The translations under genes were made by a program, and so were the position numbers. This document shows positions 1-64,000 of a stretch of DNA of 64,000 nt, piece by piece (position 1 is the first letter of the stretch; each line of letters begins with the position of its first letter). This stretch comes from Eledone cirrhosa (Eukaryota): the NCBI GenBank assembly GCA_964016885.1, contig OZ024741.1, positions 294,810,001-294,874,000 of the forward strand, written 5' to 3'. The notes under the pieces were generated by a model. That model worked only from the letters and a program-made list of their open reading frames with translations, was not told the origin of the DNA and did no database searches.

Positions 1-2500
1 CATTATTTTGACAATTAATTGGGCCAGGGGAGAGGTCTGCTGTTGAGACTGTACTAGATCTTCCATTTTGATATCTGACAACCGCGAAATTAGCATTCAC
101 CATCTGTTCGATAATAACTTTATTCACTAATGGGTCGTTCTTTGTACGAATAAAGTTTCTAATATAGGCGTCGTTTCCAACTCTAAGCCAATCTGGTAGG
201 GAAAATCCTAAGGAACCCTTTCGATCAAATCTAAATATGCGGTTATGGGGTGTCTCATTAGTCGCTGTACAGAGAAGTGATCGTTGCGAGGCAAGAACTT
301 CTGGTATGATATCTTCCCACTTAGTTTCTTTAAGTTTGCGCGAGTTAATTATGCATTGAATTCCTTTCCAGAGGACTCCGTTGTAGCGCTCGTTTTGGCC
401 ATTTCCTTGTGGATGGTACGGCGAAGTGCGCGTGTGGGATATACCATTGGACAAGCAGAAATGATCGAATTCTTTGGAGAGAAACTGAGTTCCTCGATCG
501 AAGTGTATGAATGAGGGAGCTCCGAATATTGAAAAGATTTGTTTGAGACAGTTAATGACAGTGTTTGAGGTGATGTCACGCATACCGAAAGCAAAAAGGA
601 ATCTGCTGAATTCGTCTACTGCAGTCAATAAGTATATGTTTCCTGCTTTTGAAGATTTTGGTTTTGGTCCAACGATATCGATTGACAGACGTTCGAACGG
701 GTTGTTGACTTAATGAGTTTAGCAGATGGAGGCTTGAAGAATTTCGTCTACGGAAAAGGGCAGGTTATGGCGTCGGATATAATCGTAAAATCTAGTTACT
801 CCTAGGTGTGCTAGTTGGTCGTGGAGTACTTTTAAATCACAGGGTGGCGATATAGCTGCAGCGATTCTTGAAAGACAATCGGCTTGGGTGTTGAGGTAGC
901 CGGGTTTGTAGTCAATGTCAAATTGATGCTCTGATAGTTCTAAACGCCAGCGAGATATTTTATAATTTTTGATTCGTGATTTTTTACTCGAGAAAATGAA
1001 GGCTACTGGTTTTTGGTCAGTCCGTATAATCGTATGAAAACACTTCACGTATTGCGACCATCTCCGTACAGCTTCAATAATAGCCATAGCTTCTCGCTCC
1101 ACAGTTGATTGTCTTTTCTCGGACGGTGTAAGTGTTCTCGACAGGAAGGCCACGGGCCGTTCGTTTTGAGAAAGTATAGCTCCGATTGCATCGCCAGACG
1201 CATCCGTTTCTATTACCAATGCGTGGTCAGTTTTAAGAGGAATGCTAAGAGCGGCATTAGAGATATCTGCTTTCATGGCTTGTATTACATCTGTAGCTAC
1301 TTTATTCAGCGGGAACGAGTCAGCTTGTAATAGTGGTTGGATTTTCTTCGAGTAATCGGCAATCTACCTAGCATTATAGGCTAGGAATCCAAGGAATCGT
1401 TTCAGTTGTTGTTTGTTTGTTGGAATCGGGTTTCTTTACTCCGTTCTGAATGTTATAACCTAGTATAGATATACTCGTTTGGCAGATTTTACTCTTATCC
1501 GAGTTAAGAGTTAGGTTTTCTGTCTTCACGGCGTTTAATAATGCTTCCACATTTCTATCATGTTCAGCTTTGGTATATCCCGTGACTATGACGTTGTCAA
1601 TATAGGCATAGGTTTTGAGTAAGTTATATTTCTCTATAACTTGATCCATAATTCTCTGAAAAACAGGTACAGCGTTAGTCACGCCAAAGGGTAAGCAGCA
1701 GAATTGGTAGAGTTTGTGATTAGCCTGAAATGCCGTTAGAGGTTTGTCGATTTTTCTTAAAGGTGATACGCTGATTTGAGGTCGAATTCTGAAAAATATT
1801 TATCCTGTGCCACTTTGTTAACAACATCCTCAATGTCGGGGGATGGATAGGCATCCAATTGTGTATACTTATTAATTGTCTGGGAGTAGTCTACCACGAG
1901 TCGAGGTTTCTTTCCGTGTACTATGAAGCACTGAGCTCACCAAGTTGAAATTGATTCCTCAATGATACCGGCTTCTAGGAGGCGAGTTATTTTGGACTTA
2001 ATAAAATTGTCGTCTCTCTTGTTAATGAAACGTCCCTTAGTGGCAATCGGCTTGATATTTGTCTCGGCTAGATCGTGGAAGACAAGAGGCGGATTAACTT
2101 CTATTGTCGGAAAGGTACAGCATAGTTGATTTGAAAATTTCATGGGAGGCCGGGCACCGCCAAGGTGGAGAATAATAGAGCTATGCTGGGTGAGGACATC
2201 CATTCCGATAATGATGTCTGCGACAAGACTTTTTGCAGTGATTAGGTTCACAGAGTATTCCACGCTGTAGATACATATTGGTATGGATGTAGTACCAGTC
2301 GTCATTAATATTTTATTGTCGGCTAGTGTGATTGCCCGTTTTTCTTGTTTTACGCTCAAGTTTAATTCAGTTGCTATGCTATGACGTATAAACAAATCTG
2401 TGGAACCAGGATCGATTAAGGCCTTTAGTGTGGTGTCTTTTATAGTTATCGGGCAGAGAATAGCTTTAGACTGTTTGCCGATATTTAATGAACATATAAG
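1..2500 (-). pseudogene. pol: Pol (protease, RT, RNase H, integrase), frameshifted
   Basis: ORFs 1937..2671, 1374..1682 and 719..1276, plus manual translation of the integrase core and C-terminus (TPHNRIF...LPDWL...DPLV...TVSTADLSP) in 1-715. Confidence 0.9.
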
Positions 2501-3294
2501 TGAGGCTGCTTGCTTACTGCTTTGGCAGTCAGATGTACAGACTGATTGCCAGTGGCCGATCTTCCCACAAGAATAGCATATGTCTTTTCTAGCTGGGCAT
2601 TTATTTCTAGGATGCCTATAAAGTCCACAAAAAAAGCATTTAAATTCACTTTGGGAATTAGCATTTTTCAAGTATTTCAGAAGAGGTTGTTTTGATTTTG
2701 TAGCTGCTACGGTAGGTTCTTGAGAGGATGTAGTTGACAGTGTTGATGAATTCAGAGAGACGTCTAGGTTGAATGATTTAGTAAAATCACTGGATAGTTC
2801 TATTGCATTTGCTATTGCTATGCAGTCTTTTAGGTTTGCTTGAGTATCGTCTAGCTCTAGGAGACGTGCTCATATAGCGTCTGATTGGACTCCTGCTACT
2901 AGTGAATCCAGGATCAACATATCTCTGTGGTCTTTAGCTGTGATGGCTTTACAGTTACATTTTTCCACTAAAAGGTTGCGTCTTTTAATAAACTCTCGGA
3001 CGGTTTCTTCTTGCTTTTGGCGGCATGTTAGGAGTTGATGTCTGGCATAGAGTATACGACTGGGGCTAAGAATTGAGTATCCAGGGTGATTAGTGCTTCG
3101 TTGAAGTTTTCTGCAGATTCGAGTAAACTAAGTAGGTCGGCCCCAGCTTGTGAACGAAGGTAGGTCAATTTATGGTTGTCCTCTACTATGCCATTTATGA
3201 GTAGGAAATCCACAAAACACTTCCGCCACCATCGCCATTGCTCGGATGTGGGGTCATTTGGGAATGTTGGATGTGGAATTTTTAATTGAGCCAT
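2500..3294 (-). pseudogene. gag: Gag (frameshifted) with CCHC zinc knuckles
   Basis: MAQLKIPHPTFPNDPTSEQWRWWRKCF... in ORF 3028..3387, broken near 3030-3060; the knuckles are in ORF 1937..2671. Confidence 0.85.
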
Positions 3295-3406
3295 TGGTAT
3301 TGAGAATGTAGCAAGCTTTGAAGGTAGAGTAAGGGTGGAAACGAATACCACAAAACGTCTAGTCTCGGAACGAAACAGTTGTAACAAATATCATATTGAA
3401 TAAAAT

Positions 3407-15020: not shown

Positions 15021-17490
15021 CATCATCATCATCATCATCAACGTTTAACGTCCGTGTTCCACGCTTGCATGGGTTTGGACGGGGGTAGTCCCACTTGAGG
15101 CAAGAGTGATTGTCTTGCTCGCATAGGACTGTCTGGCAGGTTTTCTACAGTTGGATGCCCTTCCTAACACCAACCACATTTACAGTGTGGGTCTGGGAGG
15201 TTTTTACCGTGTTGCCTACACGGCCACATTACAGCGTGGACTGTGTGTTTTTTTGTCGTGACACCTACACGATCGCATTTGTTTCGGCCTGGATGGCGCG
15301 GCACCAACATAACTTTACATAGAACGGGGTGGTGTGGATGGGGTGGGGGTGGTGGGACGGGGTGTATTTTGTTAGAGATGCCTACTGGCTGGAGTAGGTT
15401 TTACTATATATTTAGGTAAGGCGGGTCTTCTCTGTTACTGAGTACCGCCAAAGGTCTCGGTCCAGTGACATTGTCTTGGAGAGGTGTAAGTGTGTGATGT
15501 CGGAGTTTATCAGCTCGTCCCAGGTTTTTCTAGGTCTGCCTATTCCGTGACTACCGTCTATCTTTATTGCCCTGCACTTTGTTATACAGCTATCGACTTT
15601 CATGCGTATCACGTGTCCATACCAACGTAGCCTTCTCTCGAGTAAACAACATCTGATCCCTCTTATCTCTAATTTTTTCCTTAGTTCGTTTATGCTTTGC
15701 CGTTCACGTATATTACTGTTACACATCCAGCGGAGCATGCAAGCTTCGTTCCTCTCTAGTCTGCGTATATCCTCTGCACACATTGCCCAGGTCTCACTGC
15801 CATGCAACATTGCTGTTCGTATGCAGGCATCGTACAACCTGCCTTTCATTTTTAGGGAGAACCCTTTAGCAGCTAATAGTGGTATAAGCTCTCTGAACTT
15901 TTTCCAACCAGTTCTGACTCTAGCTACAGTACTTTCAGAGCACCCTCCCCCACTGCTGATTTTATCGCCCAGGTAACGGAAGCTGTCCACTATTTCTATA
16001 GAACCCTCTGCGCAATTGAAAGAGCTAGTATTTTGTGGGCACTTGCTGCTACTTATTGCACCAGAACACCGGCCACATGTAAAATCTATGTTCTTAGTTA
16101 GCTTACCTGTGATCCCACTACATCTTTTATGCACCCATACTTTGCATTTAGGACATAAAATGGAGTTTCTACCTACGCCTTTCCTACACACCGAGCACGA
16201 CCATTTCCCAGAAGGGACCGCCACCTTGTCTTCTTTCCTACAAACTAGAACTTTGGTCTTAGCCAGGTTAATTTTAAGTCCTTTTGACTCTAGGCCGTGC
16301 TTCCATGTTTGGAATTTCTTCTCTAGCTCGGCCATTGATTCCGCTATGAGTGTCAGGTCGTCTGCGTATAGGAGTTCCCATGGGTAGCCTGTCTTGAACT
16401 CCTCTGTTATAGCCTGAAGGGCAATAATAAATAGTAGGGGGCTGAGAACAGAGCCCTGATGGACGCCAACTTTTACGCTAAACTCTTCACTATATTCGTT
16501 GTTAATTCTAACCTTGCTGACTGTTTCTTTATACATGGCTTGTATAGCCCTCACAAGCCATTCGTCAACGCCTAGTTTTCTAAGAGCCCACCAGATAATG
16601 GAGCGGGGGACTCTGTCGAAGGCTTTCTCCAAGTCGACAAAAGCTAAGTAGAGGGGTTTACCTTTAGCTAGGTACTTCTCCTGTAGTTGTCGTACTATGA
16701 AAAGAGTGTCTGTGGTACTTTTGCCTGACACAAACCCGAACTGCATTTCATCTAGGTCAATTCTCTCTCTGATTAGTTGCGCTATTACTTTTTCCGTGAC
16801 CTTCATGCCCTGGTCGATTAATTTAATGCCTCTATAGTTACTCCTATCTAGGGCGTCTCCTTTACCCTTATAACAGTTAACGATGATGCTGCTATGCCAG
16901 TCCTTCGGAACAACCCCATTCTGTACGACTTGGTTAACTATGCGGGTGACCATGGTGTGTCCCACCGTGCCAGATGCCTTCAGCATCTCAGCAACTATTT
17001 CCGAAGGCCCAGCCGCCTTACCCGTCTTCATATCCTTGATTGCCTTACTTATTATACTCCCCTCGACTAACACTGCTGGTCCCTCTATTGGGTCGATATG
17101 GGGGAGACTGTCTTTCTCCCATTTATTCTCCTCATTTAGTAGCCTTTCATAGTGACACTTCCAAGCTACCTTCTTATCAGTGTCGGTGATGGCAAGTATG
17201 CCATCATCGTTAAGTACACACTTCTCCCCGACAATATCATGGTTTTCCTTGACGCATTGCCTAGCAATCCTGAACACCTCACGTTTTTGGTCATCGCGTT
17301 GTAGAACATGCTTGAACTTTCTTTCCTCAGCTTCCCTTCTTGCTAAGTACACTTCTCTCCTAGCTTCCCTCCTGGCCACTTGATACTCTACTTCCCCCAT
17401 CCTGCCATACTTTCCAAGCCTGCTTTTTGGCCTTAATTGACCCCTCCACCTTACTGTTCCACCACCATGTTACTCTCCTCCTGCCTACAG
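15021..17490 (-). mobile_element. RTE-clade LINE, 5'-truncated, with 3' UTR and (GAT)n tail
   Basis: RT ORF, a 3' UTR with ~50-bp internal repeats, and (CAT)n at 15021-15040. The 5' end abuts (TA)n and no APE endonuclease domain is present. Confidence 0.95.
15412..17400 (-). CDS. RTE reverse transcriptase (N-terminally truncated ORF, 662 aa) with an internal PHD-like Cys/His finger
   Basis: NYRGIKL, QFGF, FVDLEKAFDRV, GVHQGSVLSPLLF, LLYADD, FRYLG, RLRWYGHV and GRPRKTW motifs. The upstream VTWWWN motif lies in another frame, so the annotated Met is not the real start. Confidence 0.93.
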   Translation of the reverse strand: MGEVEYQVARREARREVYLARREAEERKFKHVLQRDDQKREVFRIARQCVKENHDIVGEKCVLNDDGILAITDTDKKVAWKCHYERLLNEENKWEKDSLPHIDPIEGPAVLVEGSIISKAIKDMKTGKAAGPSEIVAEMLKASGTVGHTMVTRIVNQVVQNGVVPKDWHSSIIVNCYKGKGDALDRSNYRGIKLIDQGMKVTEKVIAQLIRERIDLDEMQFGFVSGKSTTDTLFIVRQLQEKYLAKGKPLYLAFVDLEKAFDRVPRSIIWWALRKLGVDEWLVRAIQAMYKETVSKVRINNEYSEEFSVKVGVHQGSVLSPLLFIIALQAITEEFKTGYPWELLYADDLTLIAESMAELEKKFQTWKHGLESKGLKINLAKTKVLVCRKEDKVAVPSGKWSCSVCRKGVGRNSILCPKCKVWVHKRCSGITGKLTKNIDFTCGRCSGAISSSKCPQNTSSFNCAEGSIEIVDSFRYLGDKISSGGGCSESTVARVRTGWKKFRELIPLLAAKGFSLKMKGRLYDACIRTAMLHGSETWAMCAEDIRRLERNEACMLRWMCNSNIRERQSINELRKKLEIRGIRCCLLERRLRWYGHVIRMKVDSCITKCRAIKIDGSHGIGRPRKTWDELINSDITHLHLSKTMSLDRDLWRYSVTEKTRLT

Positions 17491-17549: not shown

Positions 17550-17928
17550 TATATTAATAAAAGGAATTCCAACTTTGTCTGATTTACTCGTTTTATTTAC
17601 ATTCCTTTAAAATTATAATGATACTATAACGAAATAGTATGGTAGAATGTTAAGTGTTAATTGAACAAGTACTTTCATGCTTTCGCAATCTTCAAATTCA
17701 TATTGTGTGGTGACAGTCAAGTTTGCAATTTTCAACTGTTGAAAATTACAAACTTGACTGTCACCACAGAATATGAACCTGAAGATTGCGAAAGCATGAA
17801 AGTACTTGTTCAATTAACACTTAACATTTAATATTCTACCATACTATTTCGTTATAATATTATAATTTTAAAGGATTGTAAATAAAAAGAGTAAATCAGA
17901 CAAATTTGGAATTCCTTTTATTAATATA
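17550..17928. repeat. ~380-bp near-perfect palindrome (centre 17737), repeat family H2
   Basis: Arms are reverse complements around TTTTCAAC-T-GTTGAAAA; flanked by (TA)n. Confidence 0.95.
17774..17812 (+). ncRNA. Minimal type I hammerhead ribozyme candidate (family H2)
   Basis: Helix I TGAAC/GTTCA; core CTGAAGA; T-TGC-GAAA-GCA-T helix II; GAAA; palindromic GTAC in place of helix III; UU cleavage dinucleotide. The mirror copy at 17662-17700 (-) has C3>U. Confidence 0.7.
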
Positions 17929-35505: not shown

Positions 35506-35609
35506 TGTGTGTGTGTTAATATATAAATATATATAAAAAACTAAAAAATAGTTTTATATCTCTACATGGCTGAATACAAGCAATGTAAATCTGGGTTTTT
35601 CGAAAATAT

Positions 35610-36212
35610 TAATAATAATTGTTTCTACTTTTGGCACAAGGCCAGTAATTACCCAGTACATTACTGGTACTTTATTTTAACGACCCCGTAAGGATGAAAG
35701 GCAAAGTTAACCTCGGCGGGATTTATACTCAGAATGGAAAGGGCCATAATTCTATACGTCAAAGCATGGTGTCCCACCCTCTACCGACACTGCCAATCCA
35801 CCGCCCTAATATTAATAATAATTGTTTCTACTTTTGGCACAAGGCCAGCAATTACCCAGTGTATTACTGGTACTTTATTTTATCGACCCCGTAAGGATGA
35901 AAGGCAAAGTTAACCTCGGCGAGATTTGAACTCAGAATGGCAAGGGCCATAACTCATTGCGTCAAAGCATGGCATCCGACCCTCTGCCGGTACTGCCAAT
36001 CCACCGCCCTCTAATATTAATAATAATTGTTTCTACTTTAGGCACAAGGCCAGCAATTACCCAGTACATTACTGGTATTTTATTTTATCTACCCCGTAAG
36101 GATGAAAGGCAAAGTTAACCTCGGCGGGATTTGAACTCAGACTGTAAAGGGACGTAACTATGCTAGAAAGCATGGCGTCCAACCCTCTACCGATACTGCC
36201 AATTCACCGCCC
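35610..36212 (-). mobile_element. Three head-to-tail family-B SINE copies (~203-bp period)
   Basis: Units ~35610-35806, 35812-36009 and 36018-36212, highly similar and joined by TAATATTAATAATAA. Confidence 0.92.
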
Positions 36213-36339
36213 TCTAATATTAATAATAATAATATTCAATTTGTTTGCAATTATGCAAGCAGCCTCTTTAAGCCATGTGGTTAGAATGAACCCATCATTA
36301 TTGCTCTTGAGTTGGCATATATATATATATGTGTGTGTT

Positions 36340-36374
<35 letters not shown>

Positions 36375-36638
36375 GGAAAAAATGAAACAAAATTTCATTT
36401 CCCACTCTTAGTACGGCTGTTACTTAAATATAAATATGTATACGTACATACATATATGTATACAGACGTACAGTAGTATGTATATATATATACATACATG
36501 CACACATATATATATATGTACGTATGGATTCACCGAACATTTATTATAACGCTCGCTGTGTTTGTAAACAAACATCCCGTATTAAGCCGTAGTGTCTAGC
36601 AACCATCATTGCTCTTTTGTTCAACACTGACAAAGGAA

Positions 36639-36679
36639 CGCTGTACTAGTTTCAAGCTTATTAGCTATCGTCAGCAACG
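36639..36679 (-). ncRNA. Second intact H3 hammerhead candidate
   Basis: The minus strand reads CGTTG-CTGACGA-T-AGC-TAATAA-GCT-T-GAAA-CTAG-TA-CAGCG; only the helix II loop differs from the plus copy. Confidence 0.8.
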
Positions 36680-36989
36680 TATACCTTCCTGCCAGATAGT
36701 TGGACGTCCCAATCCATACGTACATATATATATGTGTGCATGTATGTGTATATATATACATACTACTGTACGTCTGTATACATATATGTATGTACGTATA
36801 CATTCTTATATTTAAGTAACAGCCGTACTAAGAGTGGGAAATGAAATTTTGTTTCATTTTTTCCGTTTATCATTTTCGGTGCACCCGGCCAATTAACCCA
36901 CTCGATATGCAAATTGGGCTACTCAGCCATTAATATGCATAAGGAAAGTATATACTTTCGGACGTTCAACTATCTGGCAGGAAGGTATA

Positions 36990-37030
36990 CGTTGCTGACG
37001 ATAGCTAACAAGCTTGAAACTAGTACAGCG
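36990..37030 (+). ncRNA. Minimal type I hammerhead ribozyme candidate (family H3)
   Basis: Helix I CGTTG/CAGCG; CTGACGA; T-AGC-TAACAA-GCT-T; GAAA; palindromic CTAG; cleavage triplet GUA. Confidence 0.8.
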
Positions 37031-37237
37031 TTGAACAAACGAGCAACGGTGGTTGCTAGACACTACGGCTTAATACGGGATGTTTGTTTACAAACACACT
37101 GAGCATTATAATAAATGTTTGGTGAATCTATACGTACATATATATATGTGTGCATGTATGTATATATATATACATACTACTGTACGTCTGTATACATATA
37201 TGTATGTACGTATACATACTTATATATATATATATAC

Positions 37238-37339
37238 AGAACTGTCGCTGGTTTGGTTTCTACAGCTGGATGCTCTTCCTAATGCCAACCTCATTTACAG
37301 TGTGGACTGGGTGCTTTTTATCATGGCACCAACATGACC

Positions 37340-37399
<60 letters not shown>

Positions 37400-37436
37400 G
37401 GTCATGTTGCTAAAAAGCACCCAGTCCACACTGTAA

Positions 37437-37467
<31 letters not shown>

Positions 37468-37670
37468 GGTCATGTTGGTGCCATGATAAAAAGTACCCAG
37501 TCCACACTGTAAATGAGGTTGGCATTAGGAAGAGCATCCAACTGTAGAAACCAAACCAGCGACAGTTCTGTATAAGTAAAATATGGTCATCGCAGTACAT
37601 TGTCTCACAGTACAACTCATCTAATCTTTGCTAGTGGGAAAAAATGGATCATTAAATGATCATGATGATG
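37238..37670. mobile_element. RTE 3' UTR fragment with a fold-back inverted duplication through (TA)n
   Basis: 37238-37343 is the reverse complement of ~37462-37570; a short third piece at 37395-37436 lies between two TA tracts; GAT tail at ~37660. Confidence 0.88.
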
Positions 37671-62574: not shown

Positions 62575-64000
62575 CTTGCCATCACCGACACTGATACATA
62601 CTTGCCATCACCGACACTGATAAGAAGGTAGCTTGGAAGTGTCACTATGAAAGACTACTAAATGAGGAGAATAAATGGGAGAAAGACAGTCTCCCCCATA
62701 TCGACCCGATAGAGGGACCAGCAGTGTTAGTCGAGGGGAGTATAATAAGTAAGGCAATCAAGGATATGAAGACGGGTAAGGCGGCTGGGCCTTCGGAAAT
62801 AGTTGCTGAGATGCTGAAGGCATCTGGCACGGTGGGACACACCATGGTCACCCGCATAGTTAACCAAGTCGTACAGAATGGGGTTGTTCCGAAGGACTGG
62901 CATAGCAGCATCATCGTTAACTGTTATAAGGGTAAAGGAGACGCCCTAGATAGGAGTAACTATAGAGGCATTAAATTAATCGACCAGGTCATGAAGGTCA
63001 CGGAAAAAGTAATAGCGCAACTAATCAGAGAGAGAATTGACCTAGATGAAATGCAGTTCGGGTTTGTGTCAGGCAAAAGCACCACAGACGCTCTTTTCAT
63101 AGTACGACAACTACAGGAGAAGTACCTAGCTAAAGGTAAACCCCTCTACTTAGCTTTTGTCGACCTGGAGAAAGCCTTCGACAGAGTCCCCCGCTCCATT
63201 ATCTGGTGGGCTCTTAGAAAACTAGGCGTTGACGAATGGCTTGTGAGGGCTATACAAGCCATGTATAAAGAAACAGTCAGCAAGGTTAGAATTAACAACG
63301 AATATAGTGAAGAGTTTAGCGTAAAAGTTGGCGTCCATCAGGGCTCTGTTCTCAGCCCCCTACTATTTATTATTGCCCTTCAGGCTATAACAGAGGAGTT
63401 CAAGACAGGCTGCCCATGGGAACTCCTATACGCAGACGACCTGATACTCATAGCGGAATCAATGGCCGAGCTAGAGAAGAAATTCCAAACATGAAAGCAC
63501 GGCCTAGAGTCAAAAGGACTTAAAATTAACCTGGCTAAGACCAAAGTTCTAGTTTGTAGGAAAGAAAACAAGGCGGCGGTCCCTTCTGGGAAATGGTCGT
63601 GCTCGGTATGTAGGAAAGGCGTAGGTAGAAACTCCATTTTATGTCCTAAATGCAAAGTATGGGTGCATAAAAGATGTAGTGGGATCACAGGTAAGCTAAC
63701 TAAGAACATAGACTTTACATGTGGCCGGTGTTCTGGTGCAATAAGTAGCAGCAAGTGCCCACAAAATACTAGCTCTTTCAATTGCGCAGAGGGTTCTATA
63801 GAAATAGTGGACAGCTTCCGTTACCTGGGCGATAAAATCAGCAGTGGGGGAGGGTGCTCTGAAAGTACTGTAGCTAGAGTCAGAACTGGTTGGAAAAAGT
63901 TCAGAGAGCTTATACCACTATTAGCCGCTAAAGGGTTCTCCCTAAAAATGAAAGGCAGGTTGTACGATGCCTGCATACGAACAGCAATGTTGCATGGTAG
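62571..64000 (+). mobile_element. RTE LINE, 5'-truncated, RT interrupted by a TGA at 63492-63494; runs off the window end
   Basis: Near-identical to the reverse complement of ~15796-17200; 26-bp tandem duplication at the 5' junction. Confidence 0.95.

Follow-up and report, generated by a model that had tools for sequence, protein, structure and literature searches.

A short hammerhead repeat with Penelope-type ends in Eledone cirrhosa: probable solo copy of a retrozyme-like family

The insertion at 36369–37228 of the window (the whole 64-kb stretch of Eledone cirrhosa DNA that was analyzed) is best read as an element of a known kind, namely a solo copy from a non-autonomous, retrozyme-like family of Penelope type. 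It belongs to a large dispersed family with a unit of 414–428 nt. We consider it rather probable, with modest confidence, that an autonomous Penelope-like element supplied the reverse transcriptase and endonuclease which put this non-coding hammerhead repeat into TA sequence, working in trans from an uncleaved RNA longer than one unit. Mobilization in trans, proposed in the first-pass annotation, is itself probable. That animal retrozymes ride on Penelope enzymes has been argued from co-occurrence and terminal-repeat phylogeny in the main text of a preprint (bioRxiv 10.64898/2026.07.22.740005). The insertion signature itself is seen here on a short unit without an ORF, and in many copies.

Layout and sequence of the insertion

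The element is composed of an inverted leading copy followed by one direct unit and a partial second one, with a TA tract on the left and on the right:

36343–36368, no strand: left (TA)n tract, the likely insertion target (from the sequence)
36369–36712, minus: inverted, 5'-truncated copy made of X (including 14 extra nt), Y and the tail (blastn, pairwise alignment)
36369–36424, minus: tail of the inverted copy, corresponding to 36815–36870 (56/56 identical) and missing at the right end of the insertion
36632–36688, minus: complete type I hammerhead with a UAU/U internal loop and a 5-bp distal stem; C3 at 36674, H17 at 36644
36711–36814, plus: Y1, the upstream repeat, 5'-truncated and TA/CA-rich, with a predicted hairpin of -38.8 kcal/mol (alignment, folding)
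36815–36870, plus: tail bounded by the two 3' ends observed, one at about 36811–14 and one at 36870; a small hairpin is predicted within it
36871–36956, plus: Z, a spacer joined head-to-tail to the tail by a junction shared by reads and contigs
36957–37124, plus: X, the part of the direct unit that bears the hammerhead (alignment)
36989–37031, plus: the direct copy's type I hammerhead; C3 at 36995, H17 at A37025 (descriptor, alignment)
37125–37228, plus: Y2, the terminal direct repeat without the tail, blending into TA at about 37225 (alignment)
37221–37236, no strand: right (TA)n tract, overlapping the end of the element (from the sequence)

By blastn and pairwise alignment, the direct unit occupies 36711–37124 (414 nt), and 37125–37228 repeats 36711–36814 with 96% likeness, giving a terminal repeat of 101–104 nt in which true agreement stops at about 37225. 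The reverse complement of 36369–36712 reads as X (36957–37124) followed by 36711–36870; the inverted copy spans the unit junction and extends 56–59 nt past the point at which the right-hand repeat stops. It overlaps the direct part by 2 nt (36711–36712). The inverted and direct X arms differ by 10 substitutions in 168 positions and a 14-nt indel, and the inverted copy differs from 36711–36870 by 3 substitutions in 160. The arrangement proposed from the letters, a reverse-complemented XY followed by Y-Z-X-Y between TA tracts, is thus borne out by alignment with a 414-nt unit. Both outer ends blend into the TA tracts, so that a target duplication is not readable.

The composition of the element sets it apart from its surroundings, as had been noticed: the observed/expected ratio of CpG reaches 1.31, whereas the two 2-kb flanks have 0.47 and 0.39 and the 64-kb window has 0.38. 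The GC content of the unit is 35–42%, and its unique part has no second copy elsewhere in the window. The earlier view that there is no credible ORF also stands, since the longest ATG-started frame, read after tripling the unit, is 55 aa and none of the four open frames tested against Pfam gave a match near the cut-off. The ORF with reverse transcriptase (RT) and GIY-YIG domains of the autonomous Penelope-like type is absent from the element, and none of the long ORFs of the window, read by eye, looks Penelope-like.

An octamer-like ATGCAAAT is found in Z at 36907–36914, where about 0.03 occurrences would be expected per unit by chance. It is a candidate promoter motif only, and a lead; the promoter of newt satellite 2 offers a parallel. 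A CCAAT at 36889 was also considered as a promoter sign and dropped, since 36891 is a G in about 99% of the depth of run X1 (see below). The TA/CA-rich segment at 36716–36812 has a predicted long hairpin directly before the first 3' end, and its length appears to vary among copies (8 letters between alignment ends in two reads of run X12).

The type I hammerhead

The core of a type I hammerhead (CUGANGA and GAAA, a UH cut site, stems II and III closed and stem I open) is intact in both copies, each with a stem I of 6 bp, a stem II of 4 bp with a U-U at its base, and the palindromic stem III that the first reading had picked out. In the direct copy, the predicted cut falls after A37025, in the GUA triplet at 37023–37025. 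The claim of two intact hammerheads on opposite strands holds for the cores but not for the whole of the direct copy, in which the distal part of stem I has been lost through a 14-nt deletion at 37025–37032 (5/6 distal pairs in the inverted hammerhead, 0/6 in the plus copy). The deletion sits between two 7-nt near-repeats. Since the second hammerhead belongs to an inverted copy, the inversion rules out an ambisense, viroid-like reading of the two strands.

How good is the case for the ribozyme? With a strict descriptor (minimum of 6 bp in stem I and 4 bp in stem II, short stem III), the real 64 kb gave 2 matches and 100 dinucleotide shuffles gave 0; a looser descriptor also matched at 17779 in the window. 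An Rfam search of the window found no hammerhead, and the hammerhead folded alone is no better than shuffles (z of -0.46 and 0.79), so that the case rests on conservation. (The many microRNA matches from Rfam lie on TA-rich hairpins, all below the gathering score, and were rejected.)

Conservation can be followed in two ways. In sequencing reads, none of the 26 positions in the core and stem II varies among the variants listed, compared with 38 of 336 positions overall (p of about 0.04), the 38 being taken from 40 of the 60 variant rows; the other rows could include core variants. The listed variants within the hammerhead fall instead at N7, in loop II, loop I and the distal stem, and at 36992/37028, a pair that could still form with the letters listed, which are unphased. 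Outside the species, the comparison uses a single sequence, a metagenome contig (L001) found by a search pattern in which the core was fixed and stem I free, which makes covariation in stem I the independent part of the result. This contig has 29 of 31 core letters as in the element and is otherwise without homology to the unit. Both sides are changed in every one of the 6 pairs of stem I and in 1 of the 4 distal pairs, and the UAU/U internal loop and distal stem are kept. Only 1 of 500 shuffles scored as high, and slid controls gave 1–2 pairs, in a comparison of three sequences. The hammerhead structure, as compared across these sequences, is conserved through sequence change and is of a canonical-like type I.

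An exact 33-mer pattern gave no match in the metagenomes; looser patterns returned L001 and two further contigs (L002 and L003), which were judged to be chance matches, with 2/6 and 4/6 stem I pairs and broken pairs next to the core. No relative of the element linked to an ORF was found by these pattern scans. Within L001 (1–1153), a 78-nt terminal repeat (92%) recurs with a period of 1075 nt; TAACCC repeats lie downstream and no frame exceeds 95 aa. It is a candidate 1.07-kb retrozyme-like unit of another organism.

Canonical and minimal Penelope hammerheads have been distinguished (PMC4209133). The element resembles the canonical retrozyme form described there in its helix I of 6 bp, helix II of 4 bp and helix III of 1–2 bp with a small palindromic loop, and differs from it in having U-U in place of the 10.1–11.1 pair. 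This U-U at the base of stem II is shared by HHR_Amex2 of the axolotl (PMC7229834). The minimal form does not fit: it has a G10.1-C11.1 pair, a long helix II and a short helix I where the element has U-U, 4 bp and 6 bp.

A dispersed family in sequencing reads

The segment 36800–37135 was aligned to 4 of the 14 listed runs (X1, X4, X5 and X12); no RNA run is among the 14, which speaks neither for nor against expression. Run X1 may be the window's own sample, as possibly also X2 and X3. Run X12 is a restriction-site library that comes from another study and carries the same species label. Run X1 contains 8,079 matching contigs (1048, 3021, 3181 and 829 at 99+, 95–99, 90–95 and <90% likeness, respectively), with a summed contig depth of 0.4–2.2 million that is not a copy number. 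In run X12, 43,564 of 12,467,656 reads match, a count that favors few loci because of the nature of the library. The element is therefore multi-copy, and not the single-copy sequence that would have argued against the first reading. The form with the 14 extra nt dominates (12,484 + 4,957 loose ends, 1,886 gapped reads), so that the usual family unit is about 428 nt. At 37009, 37049, 37100 and 37120, and at the indel, the inverted copy has the majority state of run X1; it is thus the direct copy that looks decayed. As there is one hammerhead per strand and the plus copy is damaged, the locus is probably not a source copy.

The junction of tail and Z at 36870/36871 is bridged by record 1 of run X1 and records 9 and 10 of run X4. 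Across it, depth in run X12 does not fall (2028/1552 before, 2114/1593 after), and in run X1 it falls from 975k to 686k. The tail is thus joined to Z in many copies, which makes the unit short and non-coding. On the other side of the same boundary, 36 contigs of run X1 leave the element at 36870 and enter (TA)n. The first-pass annotation had expected ends that are permuted around a circle and RNA ends at the predicted cut; the 3' ends look fixed instead, with 36870 recurring against TA, and this locus stops at 36811–14 and 36870 rather than at 37025/37026. End piles in run X12 at 36845 and 36912–15 coincide with AATT sites and were set aside as restriction ends, not ends of the element or its RNA.

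Among the joints listed (15 of 36), nine switch strand, at differing positions, four are skips and two run backward; strand switches were counted without their direction. The backward joints, from 37135 to 36800–07, are carried by 29 + 10 reads of run X12, and no listed piece spans two hammerheads. Because no listed contig covers the full stretch, arrays of at least two units are no more than suggested, by these 39 reads only. The proposal that the ends are of the inverted-plus-tandem type found in Penelope insertions gains from these data, since strand switches recur in other copies beside the partial tandem and inverted copy of this locus.

Low-depth copies of 36814–37127 also occur in run X4 (5 contigs) and run X5 (10 contigs), which carry two other organism labels. 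These may be relatives, prey or contamination.

Relatives, enzyme and template

Among known systems, the metazoan non-LTR retrozymes (defined by Cervera and de la Pena 2020, PMC7229834) are alike in their type I hammerhead, GC content below 50%, lack of an ORF, high copy number and predicted self-pairing, and their units, described as 150–450 nt, include the 414–428 nt seen here. The locus differs in being a solo copy of 1.25 units with an inverted leading copy and no tandem array. Retrozymes have since been tied to Penelope terminal repeats, with solo monomers counted beside arrays (Li, Clavereau and Pollet 2026, bioRxiv 10.64898/2026.07.22.740005). Having one hammerhead per strand, the locus lacks the two consecutive complete hammerheads by which these authors recognize an active retrozyme, and fits their monomer or solo class. 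Plant LTR retrozymes are also non-coding, hammerhead-bearing and terminally repeated, but their hammerheads are of type III, their LTRs are accompanied by PBS and PPT, and they duplicate 4 bp of the target. Sm-alpha of Schistosoma and newt satellite 2 are short hammerhead repeats transcribed as multimers, those of newt satellite 2 apparently being polymerase II products (PMC6765202); they differ from the element, in which a tRNA-like head was looked for within the unit and none was found.

The ends point to Penelope. Insertions of these elements are described as having a partial tandem, an adjacent inverted 5'-truncated copy, a tail of 30–40 bp that is often present at one end only, and a bias towards microsatellites (PMC8557442). 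In the Penelope of the anole, the tail lies between two internal start sites of reverse transcription, and AT-rich DNA is cut (PMC11167929). The element agrees with Penelope/Poseidon and Neptune in its partial tandem, inverted 5'-truncated copy and hammerhead in the repeat (PMC8557442, PMC11167929), as well as in the optional tail between two 3' ends and the microsatellite target. It differs in that it has no RT/GIY-YIG ORF, its hammerhead is canonical-like rather than minimal, and its tail is longer (56–59 nt). MRC1 of Chlamys is a comparable non-autonomous Penelope derivative with terminal repeats and head-to-tail copies, but elements of the MRC1 type are green-algal, mostly without hammerheads, and have (CA)n or (C)n targets (PMC8557442).

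How might such an insertion have formed? Tandem copies would be transcribed, and a Penelope protein would nick a (TA)n target. Reverse transcription would begin at either of two internal sites, 56–59 nt apart, and pass through an intact hammerhead site to give 1.25 units; a second priming event would then add the copy that is inverted and carries the tail. With their palindromic stem III, tandem transcripts could be cut as dimers. As for the source of the enzyme, cephalopod Naiads are described as remnants without canonical hammerheads (PMC8557442), which suggests that the partner more likely came from another clade. In Octopus vulgaris, 31 recently active Penelope-like families have been reported, in a paper whose main text does not contain the word "ribozyme" (PMC13282606).

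What was the template? Since the insertion exceeds one unit and crosses an intact cut site, it would have been copied from an uncleaved multimer or a ligated circle; a cut linear monomer could not have given it. The circle, a ligated monomer from hammerhead-cut tandem transcripts used by the same Penelope enzymes, as in the standard retrozyme cycle, is a possible alternative to which we attach rather low confidence. In its favor, folding predicts that 64% of the circular unit is paired (z of -6.4 against 40 shuffles), to which the TA-rich hairpin contributes. Circles are also formed by retrozymes of like size in coral, mussel and axolotl, and the axolotl hammerhead that has U-U at the base of its stem II is cut efficiently in dimers (PMC7229834). 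The same layout would, however, be expected from an uncleaved multimer. The Penelope enzyme of the anole initiates internally on uncleaved RNA in vitro, and hammerhead cleavage is dispensable for its insertion (PMC11167929), so that terminal redundancy can arise without a circle; in that anole element, no RNA ends mapped at the cut. Dimers of Xenopus retrozymes cut in vitro in only 1 of 9 cases (bioRxiv 10.64898/2026.07.22.740005), and position 37009, which is polymorphic in the family, is not the same in the inverted and direct copies of this locus, a weak hint of a template that was not uniform. The multimer is preferred on account of the in vitro precedent and because there is no sign of a circle here, but sequence alone does not separate the two templates. 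Mapping the ends of the family would bear on this choice and on the role of the hammerhead in transposition. A more far-reaching claim is put forward only tentatively: that an abundant and probably cephalopod retrozyme family makes a hammerhead-cut circular RNA, driven by an octamer-type promoter of its own, and that its genomic copies bear every mark of Penelope integration (two fixed start sites, an optional tail, an inverted leading copy and a TA target). If true, this would provide direct sequence evidence that retrozymes are moved in trans by Penelope enzymes, together with a 430-nt non-coding substrate for studying how inverted Penelope ends form. Literature searches found no paper on a cephalopod retrozyme, and Repbase, Dfam or supplements may contain this family.

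It is improbable that the locus is terminal-repeat debris of an ordinary autonomous Penelope, left by several 5'-truncated pieces. Every feature of the ends is also typical of autonomous insertions, and truncated Penelopes with opposite-strand hammerheads 100–700 bp apart have been reported (PMC4209133). On the other hand, the tail-Z junction is common to many copies and shows no loss of depth in run X12, which makes the short unit a trait of the family, and the hammerhead is without the traits of the minimal Penelope form. Among the loose-end rows listed (17 of 467), none is a recurrent foreign sequence at the tail-Z junction, while a junction with an ORF could lie among the other rows.

Least probable, and very unlikely in our estimate, is a satellite-like unit whose inverted and direct parts were put together in the DNA itself, through fold-back or through template switching at self-complementary TA tracts, or a mis-assembly: a second inverted arrangement (141-nt arms, 98% alike, around TA tracts) adjoins the element and runs X1–X3 may be the window's own sample, but the inversion joint at 36711/36712 is not a fold-back and lies outside any TA tract, the 10 substitutions and 14-nt indel between the X arms are unlike a read artefact, and strand switches and TA-joined ends recur in other copies.

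That neighboring arrangement, at 37233–37574, consists of copies of a common interspersed repeat that flank two TA tracts; between the arms lies a third copy, partial and deleted. The arrangement starts at the 3' end of the element. Its mirrored flank ends with the same 8 letters as 37217–37224, so that it may have formed together with the insertion. Directly to the left of the element (35605–36215) lie three tandem, SINE-like copies of 203–205 nt, 89–91% alike, with many dispersed copies in the window. Further away, broken frames resembling gag, protease, RT and RNase H of an LTR retrotransposon were read by eye at 719–3390 (minus strand). Two ORFs for LINE-type (RTE-like) reverse transcriptases, nearly identical to each other, lie at 15412–17469 (minus) and 62595–63494 (plus), with PF00078 relatives at about 60% identity in a protein search; their near-identity suggests a recently active family.
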